Source of the DNA: Candidatus Heimdallarchaeota archaeon
Lineage (GTDB): Archaea; Asgardarchaeota; Heimdallarchaeia; Heimdallarchaeales; Heimdallarchaeaceae
Direction of reading: 5' to 3'
Assembly: GCA_030668875.1 (NCBI GenBank)
Contig: DAOVER010000026.1
Span: forward strand, 9,222-41,221
DNA: 32,000 bases
The position numbers were made by a program, and so were the translations under genes. The stretch's first letter is position 1, and each line of letters begins with the position of its first letter. Below the pieces are notes generated by a model. It ran no database searches. It was not told the DNA's origin and worked only from the letters and a program-made list of their open reading frames with translations. Shown here piece after piece: positions 136 to 14,171 of this stretch.

Positions 136-3100
136 TTGTCTGATGATAAAAGAGCAAAGAAAATGTCAGCAGCTGCATTCTTTAATGATAATAAAGCAAT
201 AGCTGGCTTTGGAAATTCAATGCGGGCAGTATTTACGAGTATCAGAGAACTTGTAGAAAATGGTTTGGATGCTGCAGAAATCAGGGGAGTCAACCCTGTT
301 ATTTCAATTTATTTACGCAAACTTTCTAGTAGAGAAATTAATGATTTGCTAGATGTAACCCAATATAAAAAGTTGGAAAAACATCTTGATTTTCTGCAAT
401 TAACCTGTAGAGATAATGGGGTTGGAGTTCCAAGCAATCAAATAGCGGATTTGTTTGGACGAGTATTAACAGGAACTAAATATGGTGTAATTCAGACTCG
501 TGGTCGATTTGGCCTCGGAGCAAAAATGTGTTTACTTCACTCTATGTCTTCAGTTGATTTACCAGCACGTATCAAGAGTCGTTACTTCATGGATGATATG
601 ACTCATGAACTTCATCTAATGATAGATCTTGAAAGAAATCAACCTATCGTCATGGAACAAAGAGAATATTTATCTGGAGACCCAAATGCGTTAGAAGAAC
701 CAGGTGTTGAGATTAGCATAACCTTTACTGGCGCTTGGAGATTAGCAAAGAATAGTGTTAAGGAGTACTTCAGACAATTAGCCATTATTACTCCTTATGC
801 AAGTTTTGACATAAAAGTTCCTGGAGATAAGGAAGGAGAATTTGAGGAATTACATTATGTGAATGTAGTAGATGATATGCCTCCTCCCCCCCAGCATATT
901 AAAATTCATCCTTGGGGATGTGATATCACTCAATTCAAAGCAGAATTGTCTTCCACTAAAACTAAAAAAATGAAGGCATTTCTTGCTGAACATTTTATGG
1001 GAGTAACGAATGAAATTGCTGAAGATTTCTTCCAGTTACTAGAAATAGACCCAAACAAATCACCTTCGAATATAACTTCGAAGGAAATACGAAGAATAGT
1101 ACATGAAGGTTTTATTAAAGCTTATCAAGAAGCTAAGGATGTTAAGAGGAAACGAGACAGAATATTCCAATTTGATCCACCACGAGGAGATGCCCTTTCT
1201 CCATTAGGTGCAGGGAGACTAAGGAAAGGTCTAGAGAAAGAATTGCAACCAAAATTTGTTGAAGCTGTTACAAGACCTCCTAAAGCTTACTCTGGTCATC
1301 CTTTTGCAATTGAAGCAACTATGGGTTATGGTGGGAGTGTAAATGAAGCTGCTCAAGCTAAAGGAGCTACCGTTAATGATAATAAGATAATTTACAGGTA
1401 TGCTAACAGAATACCACTGATTTTTGGAGCAGGAAATGATGTAATTACTCAAGTTGTTTCCTCTATCCGATGGAACGACTATGGTCTAACTAGACAGTCT
1501 GATCCTCTTGCAATTGCAGTTTCATTAGTTAGTACAAAAATACCTTTCCCTGAAACAAGTAAAGAGTATATTTCTAATGTTCCTGAAATTGAAGAAGAAA
1601 TAAGATTAGCTCTGATGCAACTAGGAAGGAGACTCAAAACCTTTTTGAGCAGAGCAAAACGAAGAAAAAGAGAACATGCAAGGTTATCCAGATTTGTTAA
1701 ATCAGCACCAGTTATAATTGAAAACCTTACCCAAATTCTTGAAGATGAGAACCTTAAATTCACCGATTTCCGACTAGAAACAGATCGAATTTCTGCATCT
1801 CTAGCTCATGGTTCTCCAAAGAAAGTTCGCTTGTATATGCCAATTGGAACGCGATTATTCGGAGCAAATGTTTGGTGTCCAAATAATATTCAAACAGCAT
1901 TAAAAAATAATAATATTGAGTCAGTTTCAGAATTTCTACTTAAAGATTCAAAAGAATTAGCTGCGTTCCTTCAAATGACAAAAGCTCAGATTTACGATAT
2001 AAAGTTAAGAACTATCTCTGAATTAGACAGAGACAACTTGAGTCCAAGTTTTGATACAAAGACCTTAGTGTCTCGTCTTGTTGAACGAAGGTTCTCCTCT
2101 GAAGGTGAAAGACGGTACATTTCCTTGAAAGATGCATTATACAGACGATGGATACAAAATGTTTACCACTATTTAGCAACAGATTTTGATAAACTTCGTG
2201 CTGTTTCAGGAATGCTAGAGAAGTTCTTCGAAACTAAGAAAGATGAATTACTTAATGATTACTTAGCTAAAGGAGCTAAGACAGGTAAAAACACTATATC
2301 AACTATAGACAAAGCTATTGCTACTTTCAATACTGTATCAGACTTAAAGAAAGAACAACTCTATCCTCCCTTTAAGTATTTAAAATCTGAGACTGACAAT
2401 GTTCTTGGAGAAGATTTGTCAATAGAAGAATTTCTTTACCAGACTGTACAACCCACATCTATTAACTATCATCCAGAAATAACTCGAACGCTTATTGAGT
2501 ATTTGAAAATTGTATTTACACAAATCACTAATAAATTCCCTGCATTTGCTGCAAGCAATATAACAAGAATGAAACCTGATTGGACAGATGGTTATACAAA
2601 AAATGCCTTCCATAGAAGAAAGATAAAAACAGTTAATGATTTTCTGAACCACTCTACAGATGATCTTATTGATATAAAAGAACTGGAAAGAATATTGTAT
2701 GAACAATACATAGAACTAATTGCTTCAAATTCAAAATCTGTTCCTTTGAAAGATTTCTCTTTTGTTGAAATTCAACAGTTAAAAGAGGATGAAACTCTTG
2801 TTATGAAAGATTTAGCTAAACACGGAATAAAGACTCTTGCTCAGTTCTTAAGCTGTACCTCTGAAAAAATATTACTAAAGAAGTTTAATACTTTAGGTAC
2901 TCTTTTACTGAAGGAATCAAAGTTCAAATTATCTGCAAATTTACATGATACTAACAGGATTGTTGATCAATCTCACATCAAAATTATTCCTGAAAATGTT
3001 GAAACAGAATTTGTAAGAAATCAAATATTTACAACTTCTTCTTTTTTGGCGAAATCTTCTGTAATATTAAAGAAAATGGGAATGAAGAAGAAAGATATTG

Positions 3101-6100
3101 AGAGAGCAAAGAAGGAACTTGGTACTCCTTTACAGAATTGGGTCGATCATGATGAAATTCTCAAGAAATGTGGTATAGTAATCTTAGAAGAATTATTCTT
3201 TAATGATTCATCCGAATATAATCTTACACCTGAAGAAAAGAAAAAGTATGATGAAAACATCATTTTCCTCCGTTCTCCACTGATTTTTGCTCTACCCGAA
3301 TTAAGAAGTTCCTCCCATCTTCTTACTGAAATTGGTATTAACAATATTGGACGTTTCCTAATATGGTCTAATTCTGAACTCTCAGATATCCTTTATCTAT
3401 CTGTCAATGAGATAAAAGCTCTGAAGAAGAAAATTGTTTATCAAAAACAAATTCAATCTAGGGATGAACTAGGGAAAGGCTTAACACTTCTTTCAAGGCA
3501 CTATCCTAATTTGGTGAAATATTTTGATAAAGAAGCACCATCGATTCAGGATTTATATTATGCTTATCAGTCAGAAAATTTCTCGTTTAATACAGGTTTT
3601 TGGAAAAAACTATACAAACTGAGTGAACTATCTCAACAAGAAGCTATTGATTTAGTTCATCTTTATCCTAAGAACTTCAAAGATATTGATACATTAAAAG
3701 AAGCACTCCTACGTTTGAAATCAAGGAATGTTGAAACTATACGTCAATTCATGGAATTGCAACCAGAGATAATTGAATCAAAATTGAGTGTCTCAAAGGA
3801 AAGGAAAGTTGCTAGAGCTCTCTATGATACGATCCGATCAAGAAGATTTGAAGGAGAACAAGAATTACACAAACAAATACTTCTTCTTAGTGAGTATGAT
3901 GAATTTCAAAGAAATTTTGGTTCTCCTATTTCTAGGATTCCTGAACTTGCTCTGGAAGAATTAGAGAAATTTCGAAGTCACGATATATTAGCTGTTCATC
4001 AGATATTCGATCATACAGTAGACGAAATAGCTACTGTGCTTGGTCGTGAAAAAGGATCAGTACAACAATTCATGAGCAGTTTTACCCTCTTACAGAAAGG
4101 AACACCATTCTTTGAAAAAGTAGATAGAAACAAATACAAATCACTAGTTTCATTTGAATTTGAGGATCTTGAACGTTTCTCTTCAATCGAGATTCAATCC
4201 CTTATTCAAGCTGGTTACGCTTCAGTTGACCAGATTTTTTATCTAACCCATCCACTTACTTTTTCCTCTTCCATTCTGAACTGGAATGTTGTAGACAAAT
4301 TTAGAAAATTATTACGATCACCTCTTACATTGGTTACATGGGAGAAAACAGTTAAGACAAAAACTTTTGATGAGACTGAGAATAAAGAAGTTGAAGTTGA
4401 GGACGTTCAAATTTCTACATTAACTACTTTACAATTAAATATTTTACAGAATCAAGGTATTTCAAGAATCATCGACCTTCTTGTAAGCAAACCAGAAACA
4501 CTTGCAGAAGCTCTTAGCATCAGTATGGAAGAAGCCAAGATACTCCAGAAAGATATCAGAATTAGTGACACTGGAACTGATTTAGCAGAATTGGACATCT
4601 TCAAATCAGAAATTGTTGATAAATTAGAGGAAAACAATGTTCTTACTCTTGAGGATTTATACTTCTCAACTTCGAAGAGCAAATGGAGAGTTAAAGAAGT
4701 TCCATGGGATATCATAGAATCATTCAAAAGTATTCTCAACCTTCCTCTTGCACATCTGTCAGATATGTTGGATGAAGATATTCTAACTGCTTTAGAGGAT
4801 GCTAATGTTAAAACTCTGTTAGGATTTATGCTTACAACTCCTGAAAGTTTAATGAATAAAACAGGTATACCTGATGAAAGATTTGAAACAATAAAACGCG
4901 GTATGGATATTTCTGACATATTCAGTTACTTCTCACTTCCAAGTTATTTCCTCCCAGGTTTAACCTTCCAGCAAACCGAGATTCTAAAAGAAAATGGTCT
5001 TAAATCAGTCGCAGAATTTATAATCAGCTCTCCACAGAAAATTAACAAATTAATCAAAGTGCCTGCTAAGCAATTCCGAGAAATCACTGCAGATTTAACC
5101 ACTCAAAGCCTACAAGCTCTGTATGATGAGAAAGGAATCTTTGCTTTTGAGACAAAGCTCTTCGATAAAATGGAACAACGACTATTGGGAAGGGATTCAA
5201 TATTTGAATTTGATAGGTTTCAAACCATCCAAGAAATGTATTATACACTGAATAGAGATTTCTATCAAAATAATCAAGACCTATGGGAAAAGGTCTCTGC
5301 AATCCAAAAAGTATTATCACTTCCTCTGCACATATTCACCGAAATCTCTGAATATGCTCTTGAAATTATGAGCCAAAATGGTATTAATTATGTTTATCAG
5401 CTACTCTTTATTCATGATTCAGATATAACTGATCCATTACTATTCAGAACTGTATCAACTTATTCTTCCAAAATAATCGAAATGAGAGCTTTTCATTACT
5501 TTTCCAAGCTTCCTGCTTTTGTTTATAATTCAAACTATTTCAAGAGAATATTGAAGGATACTGTTAACAAATCTCTCTCAGACGTTATTACTGATGAAAA
5601 GGTAATCAAAGATTTAGCTGCAAAAGATAAACAATATTTATACGAAAACTATAACTTAACTATCATTCGTTCAATTCTAGAACTACCACTTAGAATTACT
5701 CCTTACTTTACAAGAATAAAGAAAGTTAGAAGGGATGAATATAAAAATACGAAAATTGGTGATGTTTTCGATATTGATTTAGAAGAACATTCTGCTCTCT
5801 CCTCCTTTTACTCTAGATTATATGAAGAAAACTCTTTCAATAAATTAATCTCGCAATTAACTATCCCAATATCTTCAATGGGATTACCCCGTGAACTTGC
5901 CTTAAAACTAAGCAAATCATCCATAGGTACATTAATAGATTTTTATTCCACTCCTGAGAAACAAGTTTCTGAAATCACTGGTTTTTCACAGAAGAACATT
6001 CGAGAAATAAAAGATGGATTAACATATTCAAACATTGTTTCTTTCCGAGTATCACAAGCTCATAAAATAAAACCTTCTTCCTTTGTATCAGAAAAGCAGA

Positions 6101-9100
6101 TTTTCGACCTTATGGGGAAATCGATATCGGATATAGAATCTCTCTTTTACTCCGCAGAACATTTAGGAATCTCAAAATTACTCCCTCTTGAAAATTATAA
6201 GAAAATCAAGGAAATTCTATCTGGGTCTATAAGATTTGTAGGATTTCTCTCATTTGATGAAATAAGAAGGTTAGAGTATCATAATATTAATTCGATAATT
6301 GATTTTGCTCTACTCTCTAAAAAAGATCTCTTTACCATTACACAAAACCCCATTTACAAGGAGTTTCATGTTCTAGATTTGATTTCCTTTGATGAGTTAT
6401 CAGAGAAAAGGATTCAAGCTGCTATACCTCTCTCATTGTGCCCCTCGATAGAAGAAGATTACTTAGAGAAAATAAAAGAAATTGGAATAAACTCCATTCA
6501 AGATTTTATCTCAAGAATGACAGAAATTAGAGAATCTCATCCTCATCTAGTAAAATTAGATATCTTCCGAGAAGTACAAATGTATCTCTCTTCTGTAGCT
6601 TATATTGGACTTAATAATGAAAGTGTCCAGAAACTCATTTACTCAGGTGTTGGCGATATCTTATCTTTCATAACTGAAGACCCTTCAACTATATCTCTGA
6701 TTCTTGGAATAAGTGAAAAACAAGTTGATAAATATGTCAAACTTGCAGTTCCAAGTAATTTGGTTGAGAAAGTAGACAACAAAGGTGTTCTTCTTACAGA
6801 ATTTTCTGGATTATCTAGAGGAAGGAGAAATTCCTTACTAAAATCTGGAAAAGAAACAGTTCAAGATCTATTTAGTTCTCGTTATCAAGCTTATTCTCAA
6901 TCTAACATCTCTGATGCGTTGATGAGCGAATTTATTGAAAGCTGTAATATGTCGTTATACAGAATTGAAGAAATTGAACCAGGAATTAAGGCTAAGCTTT
7001 CAAAGAGTGGAATAACAAGAATTATTGATTTATTCTGCAGTACTGATGCAGGACTAAAGAAAGCTCTTGATGGTAAACTCCCCAAAGAGTTTAAGCAAAT
7101 TAGAAAAGGTCATTTCACCTTAACAAAAGGAATTCCGCTAAGTTTGAATGAACCCCTGCAAGATATTATTAGAGAACTTAATATCGAACCTTCCAACAAA
7201 AAGATTGAGGACATGTTTGGTTTTGTACCTGAATTTTTGCTTCAATTTACAGAATCTGAAAGAATTGAGAAGGATAAGAATTTAGCATTCCTAGAACAGA
7301 TAGTAAGTTTCTTGAGTCTTAATATTCTATCATTACCGTCATTTGATACCACCACTAAACTGATTCTTTGGAATCGTGGTATCCGCCATATAATAGAACT
7401 ATTATCCACGAATATGAACAAAATTGATGGTATCCCATATCAAGTAATCTCAGAGGTTCGATCTTACCAGAAAAATTTTAGTTTAAGTAGAAGCATGTCA
7501 GAGACATTTTCTCCATATATTGATGATGTACTCAATTTACCTGTTAAAAAGCAAATTAGATTCCAGAATTATGGTCTCACTAGTGCTTTATTACTAGTTG
7601 ATTTCATACCTCATCCCATATTCAGTTTCACTGCAAATGAGCAATCTATTCTCCGGATTATTTCAAATAACATGTTCAAACCAATAACCTGGTTATCTTC
7701 AGATGTATCATTTAAGATTGAAGACATAAACTTACTAATTCAAAATAGAGCTATAAACATCCTTTCAGCTCTGCTTCTATTATCTGATCAAGATGATACT
7801 AAAGCACTAGATACTTTATCTAATAAATACTATAAACCGATTTCTGCTTACCTCAATTCATCTGTCTTACAACTTAGTGCCCCTGAATGGGCTCTACAAT
7901 TATCTAATACAAAGATAATAACAGATGCTAATAGCCTAAAATTACTAAAGAAAGAGAACATTTCTTATCTTGATGAATTCCTGACATTAGAAAGCAAGTT
8001 TTTGAATAACCCTAATCTTATAACCGATGTTTTACCAAAACTACTTTCACTAAAAAGCCTCCCCATATCCTCCATCAGTGACCTATCACCCAGTAATATT
8101 CAAAAATTAAAACGTTCAAGAATAAACAATGTTTATGAGTTTCTTGTAGTTCCTGCTCCATTGCTTTCAAATCTTCTATCAATTTCTGTTGAGAATGTTA
8201 ACGCAACTAAATCTTCAATTGATCTTTCTTCATTAGAAAAAACAGCAAAACTTACTGGTTTGGACCTAGAACTCTTCCCAGAACTTTCCCAAGATTCTAG
8301 AATAATTCTTCAAAGAAGAGGTTGTGTGTCTCTGAATCAAGCATCGAAGATGGATCTAGATCTCATTCCACTTCTTTCAGAAGATAAGTTACTTTTACAA
8401 AACCTTATCGCTATGTTATTTACTCCCACCACATTAATTGGAAAAATACTTAAATTAACAAAGAATGAAATTGATGAATTACTAATTCGTGATGTATGTA
8501 CATATGTAGACCTCTTAGAGCTTCCTCAAAAAACTTGGCCTGCAAAAATAAGGAAAAGTTTGTCAGATAAGGATTCTGATCCAACATATCTAATTAAGAA
8601 CTTACAAAACCTTGAGAAATTCGGAGTGCCTATAGAAAAGCTAGATTTAGCAAAAAGTGTTACTAAAGCGCTAGTAGATGCAGGAATTGTAACAATTGAT
8701 CATCTATACTATCTACCCATAACCTATGTAAGTGCAAGGAGTAAAGTTAAACAACCCATTCTTGAAGAAATTAAGAAGAAATTATCCTACAATATAAATT
8801 TCCTTCAAGATATCTCACATACAACTTTAGCTGGTTGTTATTCGAAAGATTCTTTTACGATAATTAGTTGCTTGATTTACTGGAATAATTTATCTAAGGA
8901 AATAAGAACAGATTTGGAAGGTTCTCTAGACAGTATCAAACTAATTGAAGAAACAAGATTTATTGAACCACTGACTCCAACGGAAACAAAGCTAGAATCT
9001 ATTGGTATTCACTCGTTAAGATCATTCATTTTATCCCCACAGATTAAAAAAGAAACAGGTTTAGCAACCAAACTATTACCATCTCTATTAGCTAATATTC

Positions 9101-12100
9101 GTTTCCTAAGTCTAGATCCAAAGCAGATTTCTCGCTTGAAGAAAACTGGTTTTGTTACAGTGGCAGATTTGCTTCTAAATACTTCAAAAACAATATCTGT
9201 TAAATCCAAATTAGGTAAGAATGCAATTGATGAAATTCTCAATAACATAAAAATTGATAACTTAACCAGTTTGATTAAATCGATGGAACAAGAGCATTTA
9301 CATGATGCATTTTATCTGAGTACTAATGACAAAACATTCTTGAAATCAATAGGTGTTTATAGTTTAGCAGACTTAAACGAGTATACTGTTCTTGACTGGT
9401 TTGTTTCTAAACAAAAAATCCAAAAAATCAAAAAGAAAATTAACGCTTTGTTAGATACTAATATCCTTTACTATCCAGGAATTACATCTAAACAATATGC
9501 AGAAGTTGTTGAACAATACTTCATGAGGAATATATTTACGATCAAAGATCTAATGATATCAACAACAGTCGAGAAGACAAGTGATTTGATTGAATTTCTA
9601 ACCATTTTCTCTACTAACAAACCTAAAATCCAATCCCAATATGTGACCTCTCTTTCATTCTTAAAAGGCATTGAAACCAAGGATTTGTTCGAGAAAAATG
9701 TTAAATTAGAAAAATCTGCAACAATTAATGATCTTATAGTAGCATTATACAGAAATTCTGAGGAATTGACCAAAAAGGGCGATGATATTATCAAACAGAT
9801 TAACTACCCAATTTCTTTTTCATCAAAACTTAACCTCAATGAAGCAAATGATTTACGAAGCAAAAACATCCTTTCATATGGAGATGTACTTACCAAACCA
9901 GTAGGTTATTGGGGGACTTTTGCTTCAGCGAAACTAAAGAAGAAGATTCTTGAAATTCTTAGTACAATTACATCACAAAACATTGAAAATGAAGGTAAGA
10001 AGAGAGTTCAATTAAGTAGCATGAAAATATTCGATACAAACCTTAAGAAACAGCTTACATCAAATTATAAGACAATTGATGAAGTTATTCATGCAATAAA
10101 AACAGAAGATACTAAAATCTTAAAACCATTGGAAAGGAAAATCACTAAAGTTTTGTCTACTCCTATCTCTCTTCTCAAATTACCAAAAATCAAGATTAAA
10201 TCATGGAAAAGACTTATATCGACTGTATCTACTTTAGAAGAATTCTACTTATTAACAGATCAAGAATTAGTCAAAATTCTATCCTCAAGCAAGGAAGAAA
10301 TTGTTAAATTAAAGATCAATCTCGGGTCTGAAAATATCATCTTACCTCCAAGAATAAAGGAAAATAAGATCTTTACTAGTTCAGATGTTACAGAACTAAG
10401 TGCTAATGGGATTTCAAATTATGTACAGCTTTTTGAAGTGACAATAGAAATTTCTAAACTCAGCACTTCGTTAAAGGATAAAATTGCCTTCTACAAGGAG
10501 TTTGATGTTAAGCAATTGGACGAGAACATAGAAGAAACCATACTCCTGAAAGATTTTGTATTTCTTGACTTTTATGCAGATTCTCTGGCTCTAAGTAGAA
10601 TACAAAAGGAATCTGTAAAGAATCTTTCCTCCTTGCTCTTGTCTCGTGGAACTCATCTATCAAAGATATTTGATATAGATCTATTTGATATAGATCCCAA
10701 TAAAGACAAAAGTAATCTGCTCAATACAACTATAGAGTATTTCCTCTTGATCGAGAAATATCGACCTAAGGTTTACACAAAAATTGTTGAATCTTTACAA
10801 GAAAAATACTCTTCACAATTAAACACTTTGCTTTCTTATCTTAATAGGTCACCAATTCTCCTTTCAGGACCAAATCTGTCAAATATTAACAAAATAGTTA
10901 AACTTCCTTATGAAAATATAAAGGACTTGCTCTTACTATCCAAGGAGAAACTTATTCGAGAAATAAATGATGTTGCTGTTCAAAGAAATGTTAGAGGATT
11001 GACATTATCTGTTTTGAAAGATCTTGATTCCAAGCTGACTTATATTCCAAAAGAGTTTTTGACAGCTTACGAGATAAACCAATTAAAGAAAGAGAATATT
11101 TATTCCTTTGAAGAAGCTTTGGTTTTCAATAGAAAGTCAACTAGTAGAAAATCTAAGCCTTGGTTACTATCTGAAAAAGTAAGAAAAATATCCACTATTA
11201 ACACGCTCTCACTTTCTTCTTATCTCCCCTCATCTAAAATACAAGAAAGACTACTGAAACTTAAAATAACCAATGTGTATGAACTGGTTTATTATTGCCA
11301 GAATACAGAAAAAGAAGAAGACTTGAGTCTTTGCCAATCTGTTATTCAATCTGTAAGTTCTATTAATATTGAGGAAATTGAAACAAAAGAGAGAAGTAGA
11401 TTTACTAAATTCTTTAATGACCCCGATATTCTTTCTTATTTACGAAGTCAAGATATCAGAACTTTTGGACCTTTAGTACATTATTTAGAACAGTTAGAGG
11501 ATGAAGCTTTTACCCCTGAAATTGAGAAAATCTTATCCGTTATGCGTTTTCCAGTTTCTGTATTGTCAGATAATAAGAAACTTGTGCTAAAACTAGAAGG
11601 TGAAGGTTATAACCAAGTAGTTAATCTTCTTATTCCTGCAAAAATAATCAATAGTTTGAAAAGCAATATTACCGAGAATCAGAAGAAAGTTCTCACCTCT
11701 CTGATTAACATGCTTACTTATCAAGAAATATGTCGAATAATCACAAAAGATCATTATCCGATATCAAAACTTAGTTTAATCGATGATATTTTGTTAAAAG
11801 AGTTAGTAAAGGCTGGATATGCATCAGTAGCTCATCTCAAATCAGCTGAAACAATTATTGCTGATACTAGCAAACTAAATCTACAACAAATTTCTCGTAT
11901 TGTAAGACTCTTTGATTCGTCTATTTATTACATGTCTGAAATGCTTAAAGACTATCCACAAAGTGCTTTTACTTTGTACAATAAAGGAGTTAACACACTA
12001 TGGGATATTTTCCTAGTTGGAAGTAAGGAAATTTCCAAGATTACAGGTATTTCTGTTCGACAGATAACTTCCTATTTATCAACTCTCAATCCTCAAGCAA

Positions 12101-12765
12101 TAAAACTTGCTCAAAAAGACCAAATTGCACTAAAAGAAAAGCTTACCTACTTAACTGTTGAAGATGTTGAACGATTAGAACAAAGTAACATCACTTCCAT
12201 ACAACAGTTATTGTTCCTTACAAAGGAAAATAAGACCACCTCTTCGCTCCAGCGAAGTAATGTGAAGAAATTCATCCAGCTACTTGGAATGCCTTTAAAT
12301 GCAATAGATATACAAGAGACAATTATTAAACAGCTAGAACAACAAGGTATCACTTTAGTAAAAGATTTCATTATTTATCCAGCAGAACCTATGGCTGGCA
12401 AAGTAGATTTAAGCTATGTTATGATTAAAAGGATTAAGGGAAGACTCCCCTTAGCTACAAAAAAGAAGGCTAAGAAATCTTCTCAAAAAACTTCTTCAGC
12501 AAAACCTACAACCACAAAGAAAACTACAATTGCCAAGAAATCAGTAACAACTCAACGAAAAGCTAAGACAACAACCGCCTCTTCTAAACCAAAACCAAAA
12601 GCTAAGGTTAAGCCAAAAGCTAAAGCTAAACCAAAACCAAAACCAAAATCAACTAAACAGATGACTTTGATGGATATGAAATCTACTTCAAAAAAGAAAT
12701 CATCTCCAACTTCAAAAACGAGAAAAAGCTCAAAAACCACTACGAAAAAAGGTGAAAAATCATGA
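136..12765 (+). CDS. top6B: Giant DNA topoisomerase VI subunit B fused to a ~50-module HhH-like array and a basic C-terminal tail (4209 aa)
   Basis: The first ~540 aa carry the Top6B GHKL motifs ELVENGLDA, DNGVG and GTKYGVIQTRGRFGLG, an H2TH segment (FLAEHFMGVTNEIAEDFF) and the transducer motifs RYANRIPL and IPFPETSKEYI (switch Lys). The ORF overlaps top6A by ATGA. The rest is repeated LxxPIxx(L)...L...G(I/V)x(T/S)(I/V)xx(L/F) modules. Confidence 0.95.
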   Translation: MSDDKRAKKMSAAAFFNDNKAIAGFGNSMRAVFTSIRELVENGLDAAEIRGVNPVISIYLRKLSSREINDLLDVTQYKKLEKHLDFLQLTCRDNGVGVPSNQIADLFGRVLTGTKYGVIQTRGRFGLGAKMCLLHSMSSVDLPARIKSRYFMDDMTHELHLMIDLERNQPIVMEQREYLSGDPNALEEPGVEISITFTGAWRLAKNSVKEYFRQLAIITPYASFDIKVPGDKEGEFEELHYVNVVDDMPPPPQHIKIHPWGCDITQFKAELSSTKTKKMKAFLAEHFMGVTNEIAEDFFQLLEIDPNKSPSNITSKEIRRIVHEGFIKAYQEAKDVKRKRDRIFQFDPPRGDALSPLGAGRLRKGLEKELQPKFVEAVTRPPKAYSGHPFAIEATMGYGGSVNEAAQAKGATVNDNKIIYRYANRIPLIFGAGNDVITQVVSSIRWNDYGLTRQSDPLAIAVSLVSTKIPFPETSKEYISNVPEIEEEIRLALMQLGRRLKTFLSRAKRRKREHARLSRFVKSAPVIIENLTQILEDENLKFTDFRLETDRISASLAHGSPKKVRLYMPIGTRLFGANVWCPNNIQTALKNNNIESVSEFLLKDSKELAAFLQMTKAQIYDIKLRTISELDRDNLSPSFDTKTLVSRLVERRFSSEGERRYISLKDALYRRWIQNVYHYLATDFDKLRAVSGMLEKFFETKKDELLNDYLAKGAKTGKNTISTIDKAIATFNTVSDLKKEQLYPPFKYLKSETDNVLGEDLSIEEFLYQTVQPTSINYHPEITRTLIEYLKIVFTQITNKFPAFAASNITRMKPDWTDGYTKNAFHRRKIKTVNDFLNHSTDDLIDIKELERILYEQYIELIASNSKSVPLKDFSFVEIQQLKEDETLVMKDLAKHGIKTLAQFLSCTSEKILLKKFNTLGTLLLKESKFKLSANLHDTNRIVDQSHIKIIPENVETEFVRNQIFTTSSFLAKSSVILKKMGMKKKDIERAKKELGTPLQNWVDHDEILKKCGIVILEELFFNDSSEYNLTPEEKKKYDENIIFLRSPLIFALPELRSSSHLLTEIGINNIGRFLIWSNSELSDILYLSVNEIKALKKKIVYQKQIQSRDELGKGLTLLSRHYPNLVKYFDKEAPSIQDLYYAYQSENFSFNTGFWKKLYKLSELSQQEAIDLVHLYPKNFKDIDTLKEALLRLKSRNVETIRQFMELQPEIIESKLSVSKERKVARALYDTIRSRRFEGEQELHKQILLLSEYDEFQRNFGSPISRIPELALEELEKFRSHDILAVHQIFDHTVDEIATVLGREKGSVQQFMSSFTLLQKGTPFFEKVDRNKYKSLVSFEFEDLERFSSIEIQSLIQAGYASVDQIFYLTHPLTFSSSILNWNVVDKFRKLLRSPLTLVTWEKTVKTKTFDETENKEVEVEDVQISTLTTLQLNILQNQGISRIIDLLVSKPETLAEALSISMEEAKILQKDIRISDTGTDLAELDIFKSEIVDKLEENNVLTLEDLYFSTSKSKWRVKEVPWDIIESFKSILNLPLAHLSDMLDEDILTALEDANVKTLLGFMLTTPESLMNKTGIPDERFETIKRGMDISDIFSYFSLPSYFLPGLTFQQTEILKENGLKSVAEFIISSPQKINKLIKVPAKQFREITADLTTQSLQALYDEKGIFAFETKLFDKMEQRLLGRDSIFEFDRFQTIQEMYYTLNRDFYQNNQDLWEKVSAIQKVLSLPLHIFTEISEYALEIMSQNGINYVYQLLFIHDSDITDPLLFRTVSTYSSKIIEMRAFHYFSKLPAFVYNSNYFKRILKDTVNKSLSDVITDEKVIKDLAAKDKQYLYENYNLTIIRSILELPLRITPYFTRIKKVRRDEYKNTKIGDVFDIDLEEHSALSSFYSRLYEENSFNKLISQLTIPISSMGLPRELALKLSKSSIGTLIDFYSTPEKQVSEITGFSQKNIREIKDGLTYSNIVSFRVSQAHKIKPSSFVSEKQIFDLMGKSISDIESLFYSAEHLGISKLLPLENYKKIKEILSGSIRFVGFLSFDEIRRLEYHNINSIIDFALLSKKDLFTITQNPIYKEFHVLDLISFDELSEKRIQAAIPLSLCPSIEEDYLEKIKEIGINSIQDFISRMTEIRESHPHLVKLDIFREVQMYLSSVAYIGLNNESVQKLIYSGVGDILSFITEDPSTISLILGISEKQVDKYVKLAVPSNLVEKVDNKGVLLTEFSGLSRGRRNSLLKSGKETVQDLFSSRYQAYSQSNISDALMSEFIESCNMSLYRIEEIEPGIKAKLSKSGITRIIDLFCSTDAGLKKALDGKLPKEFKQIRKGHFTLTKGIPLSLNEPLQDIIRELNIEPSNKKIEDMFGFVPEFLLQFTESERIEKDKNLAFLEQIVSFLSLNILSLPSFDTTTKLILWNRGIRHIIELLSTNMNKIDGIPYQVISEVRSYQKNFSLSRSMSETFSPYIDDVLNLPVKKQIRFQNYGLTSALLLVDFIPHPIFSFTANEQSILRIISNNMFKPITWLSSDVSFKIEDINLLIQNRAINILSALLLLSDQDDTKALDTLSNKYYKPISAYLNSSVLQLSAPEWALQLSNTKIITDANSLKLLKKENISYLDEFLTLESKFLNNPNLITDVLPKLLSLKSLPISSISDLSPSNIQKLKRSRINNVYEFLVVPAPLLSNLLSISVENVNATKSSIDLSSLEKTAKLTGLDLELFPELSQDSRIILQRRGCVSLNQASKMDLDLIPLLSEDKLLLQNLIAMLFTPTTLIGKILKLTKNEIDELLIRDVCTYVDLLELPQKTWPAKIRKSLSDKDSDPTYLIKNLQNLEKFGVPIEKLDLAKSVTKALVDAGIVTIDHLYYLPITYVSARSKVKQPILEEIKKKLSYNINFLQDISHTTLAGCYSKDSFTIISCLIYWNNLSKEIRTDLEGSLDSIKLIEETRFIEPLTPTETKLESIGIHSLRSFILSPQIKKETGLATKLLPSLLANIRFLSLDPKQISRLKKTGFVTVADLLLNTSKTISVKSKLGKNAIDEILNNIKIDNLTSLIKSMEQEHLHDAFYLSTNDKTFLKSIGVYSLADLNEYTVLDWFVSKQKIQKIKKKINALLDTNILYYPGITSKQYAEVVEQYFMRNIFTIKDLMISTTVEKTSDLIEFLTIFSTNKPKIQSQYVTSLSFLKGIETKDLFEKNVKLEKSATINDLIVALYRNSEELTKKGDDIIKQINYPISFSSKLNLNEANDLRSKNILSYGDVLTKPVGYWGTFASAKLKKKILEILSTITSQNIENEGKKRVQLSSMKIFDTNLKKQLTSNYKTIDEVIHAIKTEDTKILKPLERKITKVLSTPISLLKLPKIKIKSWKRLISTVSTLEEFYLLTDQELVKILSSSKEEIVKLKINLGSENIILPPRIKENKIFTSSDVTELSANGISNYVQLFEVTIEISKLSTSLKDKIAFYKEFDVKQLDENIEETILLKDFVFLDFYADSLALSRIQKESVKNLSSLLLSRGTHLSKIFDIDLFDIDPNKDKSNLLNTTIEYFLLIEKYRPKVYTKIVESLQEKYSSQLNTLLSYLNRSPILLSGPNLSNINKIVKLPYENIKDLLLLSKEKLIREINDVAVQRNVRGLTLSVLKDLDSKLTYIPKEFLTAYEINQLKKENIYSFEEALVFNRKSTSRKSKPWLLSEKVRKISTINTLSLSSYLPSSKIQERLLKLKITNVYELVYYCQNTEKEEDLSLCQSVIQSVSSINIEEIETKERSRFTKFFNDPDILSYLRSQDIRTFGPLVHYLEQLEDEAFTPEIEKILSVMRFPVSVLSDNKKLVLKLEGEGYNQVVNLLIPAKIINSLKSNITENQKKVLTSLINMLTYQEICRIITKDHYPISKLSLIDDILLKELVKAGYASVAHLKSAETIIADTSKLNLQQISRIVRLFDSSIYYMSEMLKDYPQSAFTLYNKGVNTLWDIFLVGSKEISKITGISVRQITSYLSTLNPQAIKLAQKDQIALKEKLTYLTVEDVERLEQSNITSIQQLLFLTKENKTTSSLQRSNVKKFIQLLGMPLNAIDIQETIIKQLEQQGITLVKDFIIYPAEPMAGKVDLSYVMIKRIKGRLPLATKKKAKKSSQKTSSAKPTTTKKTTIAKKSVTTQRKAKTTTASSKPKPKAKVKPKAKAKPKPKPKSTKQMTLMDMKSTSKKKSSPTSKTRKSSKTTTKKGEKS
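1860..12450 (+). repeat. Protein-level array of ~50 diverged HhH / alphaCTD-like modules within Top6B
   Basis: Examples: LTIPISSMGLPRELALKLSKSSIGTLIDFYSTPEKQVSEITGFSQKNIREIKDGL (5857-6021), KSLPISSISDLSPSNIQKLKRSRINNVYEFLVVPAPLLSNLLSISVENV (from 8053), FGVPIEKLDLAKSVTKALVDAGIVTIDHLYY and LGMPLNAIDIQETIIKQLEQQGITLVKDFII. The count is by eye and approximate. Confidence 0.85.
12460..12762 (+). repeat. Low-complexity Lys/Ser/Thr/Ala/Pro-rich tail with KP/KA dipeptide repeats
   Basis: KKKAKKSSQKTSSAKPTTTKK...KPKPKAKVKPKAKAKPKPKPK...KKGEKS; the DNA has AAACCA repeats at about 12586-12648. Confidence 0.9.
12751..12755 (+). promoter_or_regulatory. Shine-Dalgarno motif for top6A, inside the end of top6B
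   Basis: GGTGA lies 6 nt upstream of the ATG at 12762. Confidence 0.7.
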
Positions 12766-14171
12766 GTTCAGATCATAAATTTGTTATTAGTAATTCAACA
12801 GTTTTACCTGCTATTGAGAGAACTGCTTCTTTTGATAAGGATATTCTAGTTAGAGAAATATACAGTTGGGCTAGAGAAACATTTGACCTCAAACGAGGAT
12901 CATATGTATTATTCTTAAGAAGCTTCAAGAAATGGCACAAACTTGAACCTACAAGAAAATTATCTAGATACAATCTCCAAAAGGAAACAATGAGCATTAG
13001 CATAAAAAACTCAGTTTCAATAGACAAACTACAATCCGTTAGAGAAGAACTAGAACATTTAACAAAATACTTAATGCCTTTTGGTGTTACTCACGTAGCA
13101 ACCAAGAATTCACAAGAAACAAACAATCTTCTTGTTGAATATGCTTTAGATTTCCTAAATCAAGCAATGGTGTCACCTAATGATGCAGCTTTTCAGATTC
13201 CATCTAGAGCGGGAACAAATGTAGGTTTTGATGAGGATCAAGAATTAGTTCTTATCGGTCGTCAAATGATTGATAGACAATTTAGAAATTTAGCTTCAGT
13301 AAGTTCTGTTGAGCAAATGACCATTGTTATGAAACTCATTCACGATATTCTTTCCAGAGATATTCACAGTACTAAAAGAGATATATTCTATATGAATGTA
13401 AATGCATTTGATAAGCAGTCTGTTTCTGATTCTCTTATAGAAGATGTGGGAGCAATGTTACAAGTTACTCGTTCATCTTTGAATATTAGTGCTTCTTCCA
13501 AAGGGATTGTTGTTGGACGTATTAGTTTCAAAGAAAAAGGGGATCTCATAGATTGTCGTGCAATAGGAGCTGGCAAAGCTATATCACCAAATATTGATGA
13601 TATAGAGAGTATGGAAACTGATGCAGAAATGTGTTTGGTTATTGAGAAGGATGCTGTCTTCAATAGGCTTGCAGAGGATCAGTTCTATGATTATGTCCCA
13701 AGCATCCTCATAACAGCAAAAGGTCAACCGGATATAGCTACAAGACAATTTTTGAAGAAAATAAACGATGATCTCAGTCTACCTATATTTGCTATTATGG
13801 ATGCCGACCCTTATGGTTTTGAAATTATGCGTGTATATAGCGTAGGGAGCAAAGCATTGAGCTTTGAATCAAGTCATCTAGCCGTACCTAGTATTAAATG
13901 GTTGGGTTTACTACCAAGTGATCTTTCTCCTGAAAGTGGATTTGATATTCCAAGAAGTGCTTTAATTAAAATGACTTCTAAAGACATTCATCGATCTAAA
14001 CTGATGCTAGATGAGGAATTTGTCAAAAGAAAACCAAAATGGAAAGAGCAACTAGAAATCCAAATAGCAACTGGGTTTAAAGCTGAAATACAAGCACTTA
14101 ATGCAAGAGACCCACAATATATTACTAATTTCTATCTTCCACAAAAAATTGAGGCGGGAGATTTTATCTAA
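12762..14171 (+). CDS. top6A: DNA topoisomerase VI subunit A (Spo11 family) with an N-terminal ubiquitin-like domain
   Basis: The catalytic Tyr motif is TKRDIFY (Y210, nt 13389-13391). Toprim motifs are VIEKDAVF and DADPYG, with ITAKGQPD and KAEIQAL also present. Residues ~5-82 resemble a beta-grasp Ubl domain. Confidence 0.97.
   Translation: MSSDHKFVISNSTVLPAIERTASFDKDILVREIYSWARETFDLKRGSYVLFLRSFKKWHKLEPTRKLSRYNLQKETMSISIKNSVSIDKLQSVREELEHLTKYLMPFGVTHVATKNSQETNNLLVEYALDFLNQAMVSPNDAAFQIPSRAGTNVGFDEDQELVLIGRQMIDRQFRNLASVSSVEQMTIVMKLIHDILSRDIHSTKRDIFYMNVNAFDKQSVSDSLIEDVGAMLQVTRSSLNISASSKGIVVGRISFKEKGDLIDCRAIGAGKAISPNIDDIESMETDAEMCLVIEKDAVFNRLAEDQFYDYVPSILITAKGQPDIATRQFLKKINDDLSLPIFAIMDADPYGFEIMRVYSVGSKALSFESSHLAVPSIKWLGLLPSDLSPESGFDIPRSALIKMTSKDIHRSKLMLDEEFVKRKPKWKEQLEIQIATGFKAEIQALNARDPQYITNFYLPQKIEAGDFI

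Follow-up and report, generated by a model that had tools for sequence, protein, structure and literature searches.

A PIP-like motif in the basic tail of a giant archaeal topoisomerase VI B subunit, a candidate for weak docking on PCNA

Introduction

The canonical archaeal PCNA-interacting protein (PIP) box has the form Q-x-x-[LIM]-x-x-aromatic-aromatic. Here, we describe a PIP-like motif that departs from this form, KQMTLMDM, in the basic C-terminal tail of a giant topoisomerase VI (topo VI) B subunit, Top6B, encoded in a 32,000-nucleotide stretch of DNA from Candidatus Heimdallarchaeota archaeon (assembly GCA_030668875.1, contig DAOVER010000026.1, positions 9,222 to 41,221 of the forward strand), which was analysed as a whole and is called the window below. 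Departures from the canonical form occur: among 77 confirmed PCNA-binding motifs, one aromatic residue is missing in 43% and both are missing in 10%, the most divergent motif being that of an archaeal DNA ligase, with the S. solfataricus DNA ligase lacking both aromatics (PMC6881253). Positive charge in the flanks raises the affinity for PCNA, and a degenerate PIP definition (Prestel et al. 2019) comprises a hydrophobic residue at position 4, an at least partial hydrophobic plug at positions 7/8, helical-turn propensity and positive flanks (PMC6881253). Mre11 of P. furiosus carries a PIP-like motif without Gln, KKKRGTLDSWLGG (GTLDSWL), through which PCNA is bound with a Kd of ~4 µM (PMC6009593).

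For topo VI, both subunits were co-purified with PCNA, RFC and NucS in P. abyssi, an indirect link (PMC4929162, PMC9665070). No PIP motif on topo VI was found described in the literature, where this co-purification is the only link, and the tethering of the enzyme to forks is explicitly left open (PMC9665070). Among B-type subunits, the C-terminal domain of TOPOVIBL binds REC114 (PMC9665070). What is new here, as read from sequence, is the enzyme that bears the PIP-like motif, since topo VI is not known to have one.

A conserved motif in a disordered tail

The codons AAA CAG ATG ACT TTG ATG GAT ATG encode K-Q-M-T-L-M-D-M. The initial annotation of the window had picked out this string in the basic tail, correctly: it is the sole hydrophobic cluster of the last ~105 residues of Top6B, besides single I or V residues. 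Motif positions are numbered here with the preceding K/R as -1, Q as 1, T as 3, L as 4, [DE] as 6 and the aliphatic residue as 7.

When the last 610 residues of Top6B were used in a word-based protein search, six giant homologues came back; because these were so few, the survey of tails was anchored on top6A in whole genomes, first 60 and then 82 of the class, and the end of the upstream open reading frame (ORF) was read in each. The pattern [KR]-Q-x-T-L-x-[DE]-[MLIV] is present in 24/24 orthologous tails of three Heimdallarchaeaceae genera (20 in genus g1, two each in g2 and g4), which come from kin genomes and do not count as independent samples. These tails range from ~70 to >200 residues, with many length changes, low identity and little that can be aligned outside the motif, and in an alignment of 21 sequences Q, T and L form the sole invariant columns past the last folded module; the same three residues are fixed in all 24 tails. 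The codons of the fixed residues change synonymously, between CAA and CAG for Q, ACT, ACC and ACA for T, and TTG, TTA and CTC for L, and since the residues stay fixed while the codons vary, it is the protein, rather than RNA or DNA, that is under selection. At positions 2, 5 and 7, the replacements seen across the tails are chemically conservative. KQMTLMDM is a genuine, selected short linear motif, more than a product of chance.

The setting of the motif is disordered. AlphaFold2, run on the 21-sequence alignment, models the helix-hairpin-helix (HhH) modules upstream of the tail with confidence and gives a predicted local distance difference test (pLDDT) score <50 across residues 202-264 and 273-300 of the modelled segment, which is the whole tail minus the motif; the tail residues that score above pLDDT 50 are the eight of the motif and no others, and they include a single turn of helix at L-M-D. 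The net charge around KQMTLMDM, counted over 15 residues on each side, is +13. The pattern Q-x-[ST]-L-x-[DE]-[LIVM] has 17 matches in 1.07 million ORF residues of the genome, with a strongly basic context only at the Top6B copy, so that this pattern search found no class of similar aromatic-less motifs with basic flanks elsewhere in the proteome.

Comparison with PIP boxes of the same genome

The ORFs of the genome were scanned for a C-terminal Q-x-x-[LIMV]-x-x-aromatic, and the matches were annotated with Pfam. This gave 12 convincing C-terminal PIP boxes, in FEN1, PolB, RFC-L, Hel308, UDG, PolY (a Y-family polymerase), Nre, DUF72, DUF2797, a TdeIII-type nuclease, an MBL-fold protein and a HEAT protein, in a genome with a single PCNA gene at C12:44623-44976. 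The general statement of the initial annotation that the archaeal PCNA partners FEN1, RFC-L and PolB carry C-terminal PIP motifs thus holds in this very genome, in which they read KQKSLDAFFG, SQTSLDTFLEK and GQKSLDNWFK, respectively. The consensus of the 12 boxes is Q-[KT]-[ST]-L-x-[DE]-[FYW]-[FLM], located 0-5 residues from the C-terminus.

A position-specific scoring matrix was built from the 12 boxes, and 1.04 million windows were scored with it. Over positions -1 to 6, the genus consensus of the Top6B motif, KQTTLLD[ML], reaches 15.1 bits and rank 14 of the 1.04 million windows, with genuine boxes scoring 14.0-19.3; the match of the motif to the PIP consensus of its own genome at these positions is a direct observation. 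Of the canonical features, the motif has Gln at position 1 and an aliphatic residue at position 4 in 24/24 tails, and lies in a region predicted by AlphaFold to be disordered; of those in the degenerate definition, it has L4, an aliphatic residue at position 7, a predicted one-turn helix and the strongly positive flanks described above. Compared as a pattern, it matches a PIP box in every respect save the aromatic plug and the terminal position.

The same scan yielded an observation of separate interest. Proteins with DUF2797 (C12:27764-28684), DUF72 (C47:29067-29930), TdeIII-type restriction endonuclease (C37:12826-13674), HEAT-repeat (C22:56527-57243) and MBL-fold (C88:16735-17748) domains end in canonical PIP boxes and are possible unrecognised PCNA partners in this archaeon.

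Parallel motifs on topo VI in other Asgard families

The parallels in other families are short motifs that were read by eye, and those of families f9, f11 and f17 come from a phylum-level survey. Three families have tips with aromatic residues. In f5, a family of the class, the 21 Top6B sequences (~2300 aa) share the terminus R-L-R-R-K-x-[DE]-V-[VL]-G-[RQ]-L-[DE]-x-[YF]-M, after which 2-5 residues follow; in the AlphaFold model, GRLDSYM is part of a terminal helix along which the confidence declines (pLDDT ~58), and on that model the end may or may not be accessible for docking. In f7, the Top6B C-terminus reads T-R-E-V-D-Q-F-F-K-V-N-D, its end being TREVDQFFKVND, and the ends of f5 and f7 both resemble the Q-less PIP motif of the Mre11 type. 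Both genomes of f9 carry K-Q-K-K-L-x-x-[FY] in a Lys-rich N-terminal tail of Top6A, with Q at position 1, L at 4 and an aromatic at 7.

Two further families have an aromatic-less form on the A subunit. The N-terminus of Top6A in f11 (650-950 aa) reads M-S-P-R-K-K, followed by Q-x-T-L-x-[DE]-[LVI]-[VL], as in QATLEELV, QVTLEEIV and QSTLGDLV, with H-[DE] or S-R replacing the last two motif residues in three of nine proteins; there, the motif caps the tip of a 300-550-aa Lys-rich/HhH arm. Top6A of f17 has a basic leader and then [NSG]-x-T-L-[ED]-[DE]-H-[VI], for example NTTLEDHV. On this reading of short motifs, terminal PIP-like tips recur on topo VI, and the aromatic-less Q-x-T-L-x-[DE] form sits on different subunits depending on the family.

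Other ends of the enzyme were also noted. An N-terminal extension of Top6A in f22 contains ESSLDRYL. Top6B of f14 has a Pro/Lys-rich linker, then [TK]-Q-T-x-L-P-[IVM]-[IL]-T and a conserved C-terminal domain of ~70 aa ending in KMGKKHWKLK, and the [TK]-Q-T-x-L-P segment probably forms the opening strand of that domain instead of standing free as a motif. In f2, a Top6B tail (C207:1-240 of an f2 genome) has a SAP-domain-like end, LNVKELREILTEKGLSPRGTKAYLTKRLL, in place of the motif.

Weak docking on PCNA as a proposed function

We tentatively read the motif on the Top6B tail as a weak, non-canonical PIP element that docks on PCNA, and regard the chance that this is correct as slightly short of even. 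PCNA is suggested as a weakly docking partner because the motif follows the PIP pattern in its Gln and L4, its Thr cap and acidic residue, its one-turn helix and its basic flanks, and as a common target because aromatic PIP-like motifs are found at the corresponding ends of topo VI subunits in f5, f7 and f9. The confirmed PCNA binders that lack aromatics and, indirectly, the co-purification in P. abyssi also favour this reading. On these grounds, we infer the identity of the partner, the low affinity and the role in fork tethering alike. In such a complex, the Gln would enter the Q pocket of PCNA and the Thr would cap the one-turn helix, Leu4 and the aliphatic residue 7 would form a reduced hydrophobic plug, and the Lys-rich flanks would strengthen binding electrostatically, both to the acidic face of PCNA and to DNA. 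With two copies of the motif in the A2B2 enzyme, there would be avidity on a DNA-loaded PCNA trimer that could hold topo VI near forks for the removal of precatenanes or supercoils, and weak docking would avoid outcompeting polymerases, FEN1 and other strong PIP clients. A wider proposal, somewhat less probable, is that Asgard topo VI is tethered directly to the clamp by a dedicated PIP variant, Q-x-T-L-x-[DE]-aliphatic, that is weak by design and may have been acquired on either subunit (the C-terminal tail of Top6B in Heimdallarchaeaceae, the N-terminal tip of Top6A in f11 and f17), with aromatic tips in f5, f7 and f9.

Several observations weigh against docking on PCNA. The initial annotation had called the aromatic positions non-canonical and had proposed that homologous tails be checked for a retained QxTL and for F at the final positions; at these positions the departure from the canonical form proved complete, and in that check QxTL was retained in 24/24 tails while the expected F was not there. 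Position 7 is M in nine tails, L in seven, I in five and V in three, and is aromatic in 0/24, whereas it is F, Y or W in 12/12 genuine PIP boxes of the genome; Phe is one base change away from the position-7 codons TTA, CTT, ATT and GTT and yet is never used. Position 8 is K, A, G, S, T, E or N and hydrophobic in 0/24. The motif is separated from the C-terminus of Top6B by 14-31 residues (24 tails), whereas the characterised archaeal PIP motifs all lie at the very C-terminus (PMC6881253). Of the canonical features, it therefore lacks the aromatics at 7 and 8 and the extreme terminal position. KQMTLMDM itself has M at both position 2 and position 5 and reaches no more than 7.7 bits over -1 to 6, and when all nine positions are scored the Top6B motifs reach 2-11 bits versus 17.6-25.9 for genuine boxes. 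The motif was found neither in the Top6B tails of g3 and g5, two other genera of the family, nor in the basic tails that end the giant Top6B proteins of families f2-f4, and is therefore dispensable. The main objection to PCNA as the partner is the consistent avoidance of aromatics, in the 24 tails as in f11 and f17, which fits docking on another partner, or folding back on the enzyme itself, equally well.

Alternative explanations

The motif may dock a partner other than PCNA, or act as a regulatory peptide on a tether that folds back on a conserved surface of the topo VI core, and its likeness to a PIP box would then come from nothing more than a pattern that both share, an N-capped one-turn helix. 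This is a serious contender, only a little less probable than docking on PCNA. Aromatics, which dominate PCNA binding, are missing in every one of the 24 tails, and the recurrence of the same aromatic-less [QN]-x-T-L-x-[DE] core at the Top6A N-termini of f11 and f17 suggests a topo VI-specific partner with a pocket that prefers an aliphatic residue or His. Partner docking at the C-terminus of B subunits has the precedent of TOPOVIBL and REC114 (PMC9665070), and for the fold-back variant, the topo VI core is the single component common to all these lineages. However, no candidate partner or surface has come to light, positions -1 to 6 fit the PIP consensus of the genome very closely, and the aromatic PIP-like motifs at the equivalent termini in f5, f7 and f9 point to PCNA.

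A SUMO-interacting motif (SIM)-like beta-strand element, binding a putative ubiquitin-like (UBL) domain at the N-terminus of Top6A, is far less likely. The strings LMDM, LLDL and LLDV do fit the SIM pattern (hydrophobic-hydrophobic-x-hydrophobic with an acidic residue), and a conserved N-terminal region of Top6A is seen in f1-f4; however, the variant TLDEI of genus g4 breaks the core, the invariant Q and T are left without explanation, and AlphaFold predicts a helical turn and not a strand. The distribution of the two elements also disagrees, as f2-f4 combine a UBL-type N-terminus of Top6A with Top6B tails that lack the motif, and no N-terminal region of UBL size could be aligned in f11 and f17, which have a related motif.

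Least probable of all is conservation at the nucleotide level, as an internal promoter or translational signal for top6A ~85-105 nt downstream, or a functionless chance island: the motif does lie near the start of top6A, archaeal TATA elements can be mimicked by AT-rich codons such as those found here and the last top6B codons are constrained by the top6A Shine-Dalgarno sequence, but third codon positions vary freely with the amino acids fixed and the changes at positions 2, 5 and 7 conservative, codon data on which the nucleotide-level reading is rejected, and conservation in 24/24 tails is impossible by chance in an otherwise unalignable tail. A promoter scan found nothing, with a bacterial sigma-70 pattern that says nothing on archaeal promoters.

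Four known motif classes were rejected on sequence grounds: the LC8 TQT motif, because of the K/R at position -1; the Ski8-binding QRxx-hydrophobic motif of Spo11, as no R follows the Q; the PIP-degron, in view of the missing aromatics and of the missing CRL4-Cdt2 context; and the bacterial beta-clamp motif QLxLxL, from which the spacing differs.

The top6B-top6A locus

The features of the locus are collected in Table 1. The host assembly is 3.23 Mb in size with 33.8% GC, and Top6B homologues of 4170-4210 aa exist, one of them from a Candidatus Heimdallarchaeaceae archaeon. In Top6B, Pfam places the transducer domain (PF09239, Topo-VIb transducer) at residues 349-515 and RAD51D_N/HHH_5 repeats beyond it.

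Table 1. Features of the top6B-top6A locus, in coordinates of the window
Feature	Position (strand)	Description	Source
top6B	136-12765 (+)	4209-aa topoisomerase VI B subunit; GHKL, transducer, ~3500 aa of HhH-type repeats, basic tail	ORF and Pfam
Basic K/T/S/P/A-rich disordered tail	12448-12762 (+)	aa ~4105-4209, ~105 residues	AlphaFold2 and alignment
Imperfect tandem repeats, periods 6/18/24 (AAACCA, 18/24-nt units)	12584-12652 (+)	encode a K-P/K-A tract ending just before the motif	Tandem Repeats Finder
KQMTLMDM motif	12655-12678 (+)	Top6B residues 4174-4181	direct reading
Shine-Dalgarno AGGTGA of top6A	12750-12755 (+)	within the last top6B codons, encodes K-G-E	read from sequence
top6A	12762-14171 (+)	469 aa; ATGA overlap with top6B	Pfam TP6A_N and TOP6A-Spo11 Toprim

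Repeat expansions in the tails of relatives are much longer and recent, one of them having >170 aa of TTAKK units. The Top6B C-termini of relatives keep KGG[DE]K, which coincides with the AGGTGA/GGAGG-type ribosome-binding site of top6A, and the conservation of this terminal K-G-G-[DE]-K is probably at the RNA level, reflecting that site. The UBL-type Top6A proteins of f1-f4 have in common [RK]-N-S-T-x-L-P near residue 10, encoded here within 12762-12830, which is probably the first strand of the putative ubiquitin-like fold.

Significance and comparison with known systems

How topo VI is brought to replication intermediates has yet to be answered, and the motif is a candidate for its recruitment to forks. 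If the proposed tethering of Asgard topo VI to the clamp is true, it would be the first direct link between topo VI and PCNA and would answer how the enzyme is recruited there, in the archaeal group closest to eukaryotes, whose topo VI bears the motif. The parallels that other Asgard families carry on the other subunit offer independent test cases, and if the partner is not PCNA, the motif would still be a handle for finding the docking target of a giant enzyme.

A close likeness within topo VI is the Top6A tip of f11 and f17, which shares with the Top6B motif [QN]-x-T-L-x-[DE] followed by an aliphatic residue or His, a basic leader, a free tip and the lack of aromatics; it differs in lying on the other subunit, at the other terminus and at the extreme end of the protein (residues ~12-20), and is a parallel rather than an explanation. 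The REC114-interacting domain of TOPOVIBL is likewise a short conserved partner-recruiting element at the C-terminal end of a B-type subunit, but it is eukaryotic, meiotic and unrelated in sequence, and the comparison does not imply a REC114 homologue for the Heimdall Top6B.

Set beside the canonical PIP boxes (FEN1, PolB and RFC-L of this genome, and the P. furiosus RFC-L/PCNA structure cited in PMC4929162), the Top6B motif shares the preceding K, Q1, S/T3 and L4, an acidic residue at position 5 or 6, a disordered basic context and one helical turn from L4; it differs in having no aromatic at 7, no hydrophobic residue at 8 and an internal rather than terminal location, 14-31 residues from the C-terminus. 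Mre11 lacks the Q and keeps an aromatic, whereas the Top6B motif keeps the Q and lacks the aromatic, and it is the G-R-L-D-S-Y-M ends of Top6B in f5 that the Mre11 motif closely resembles. Mre11 and the S. solfataricus ligase both show archaeal PCNA to tolerate degenerate motifs flanked by basic residues.

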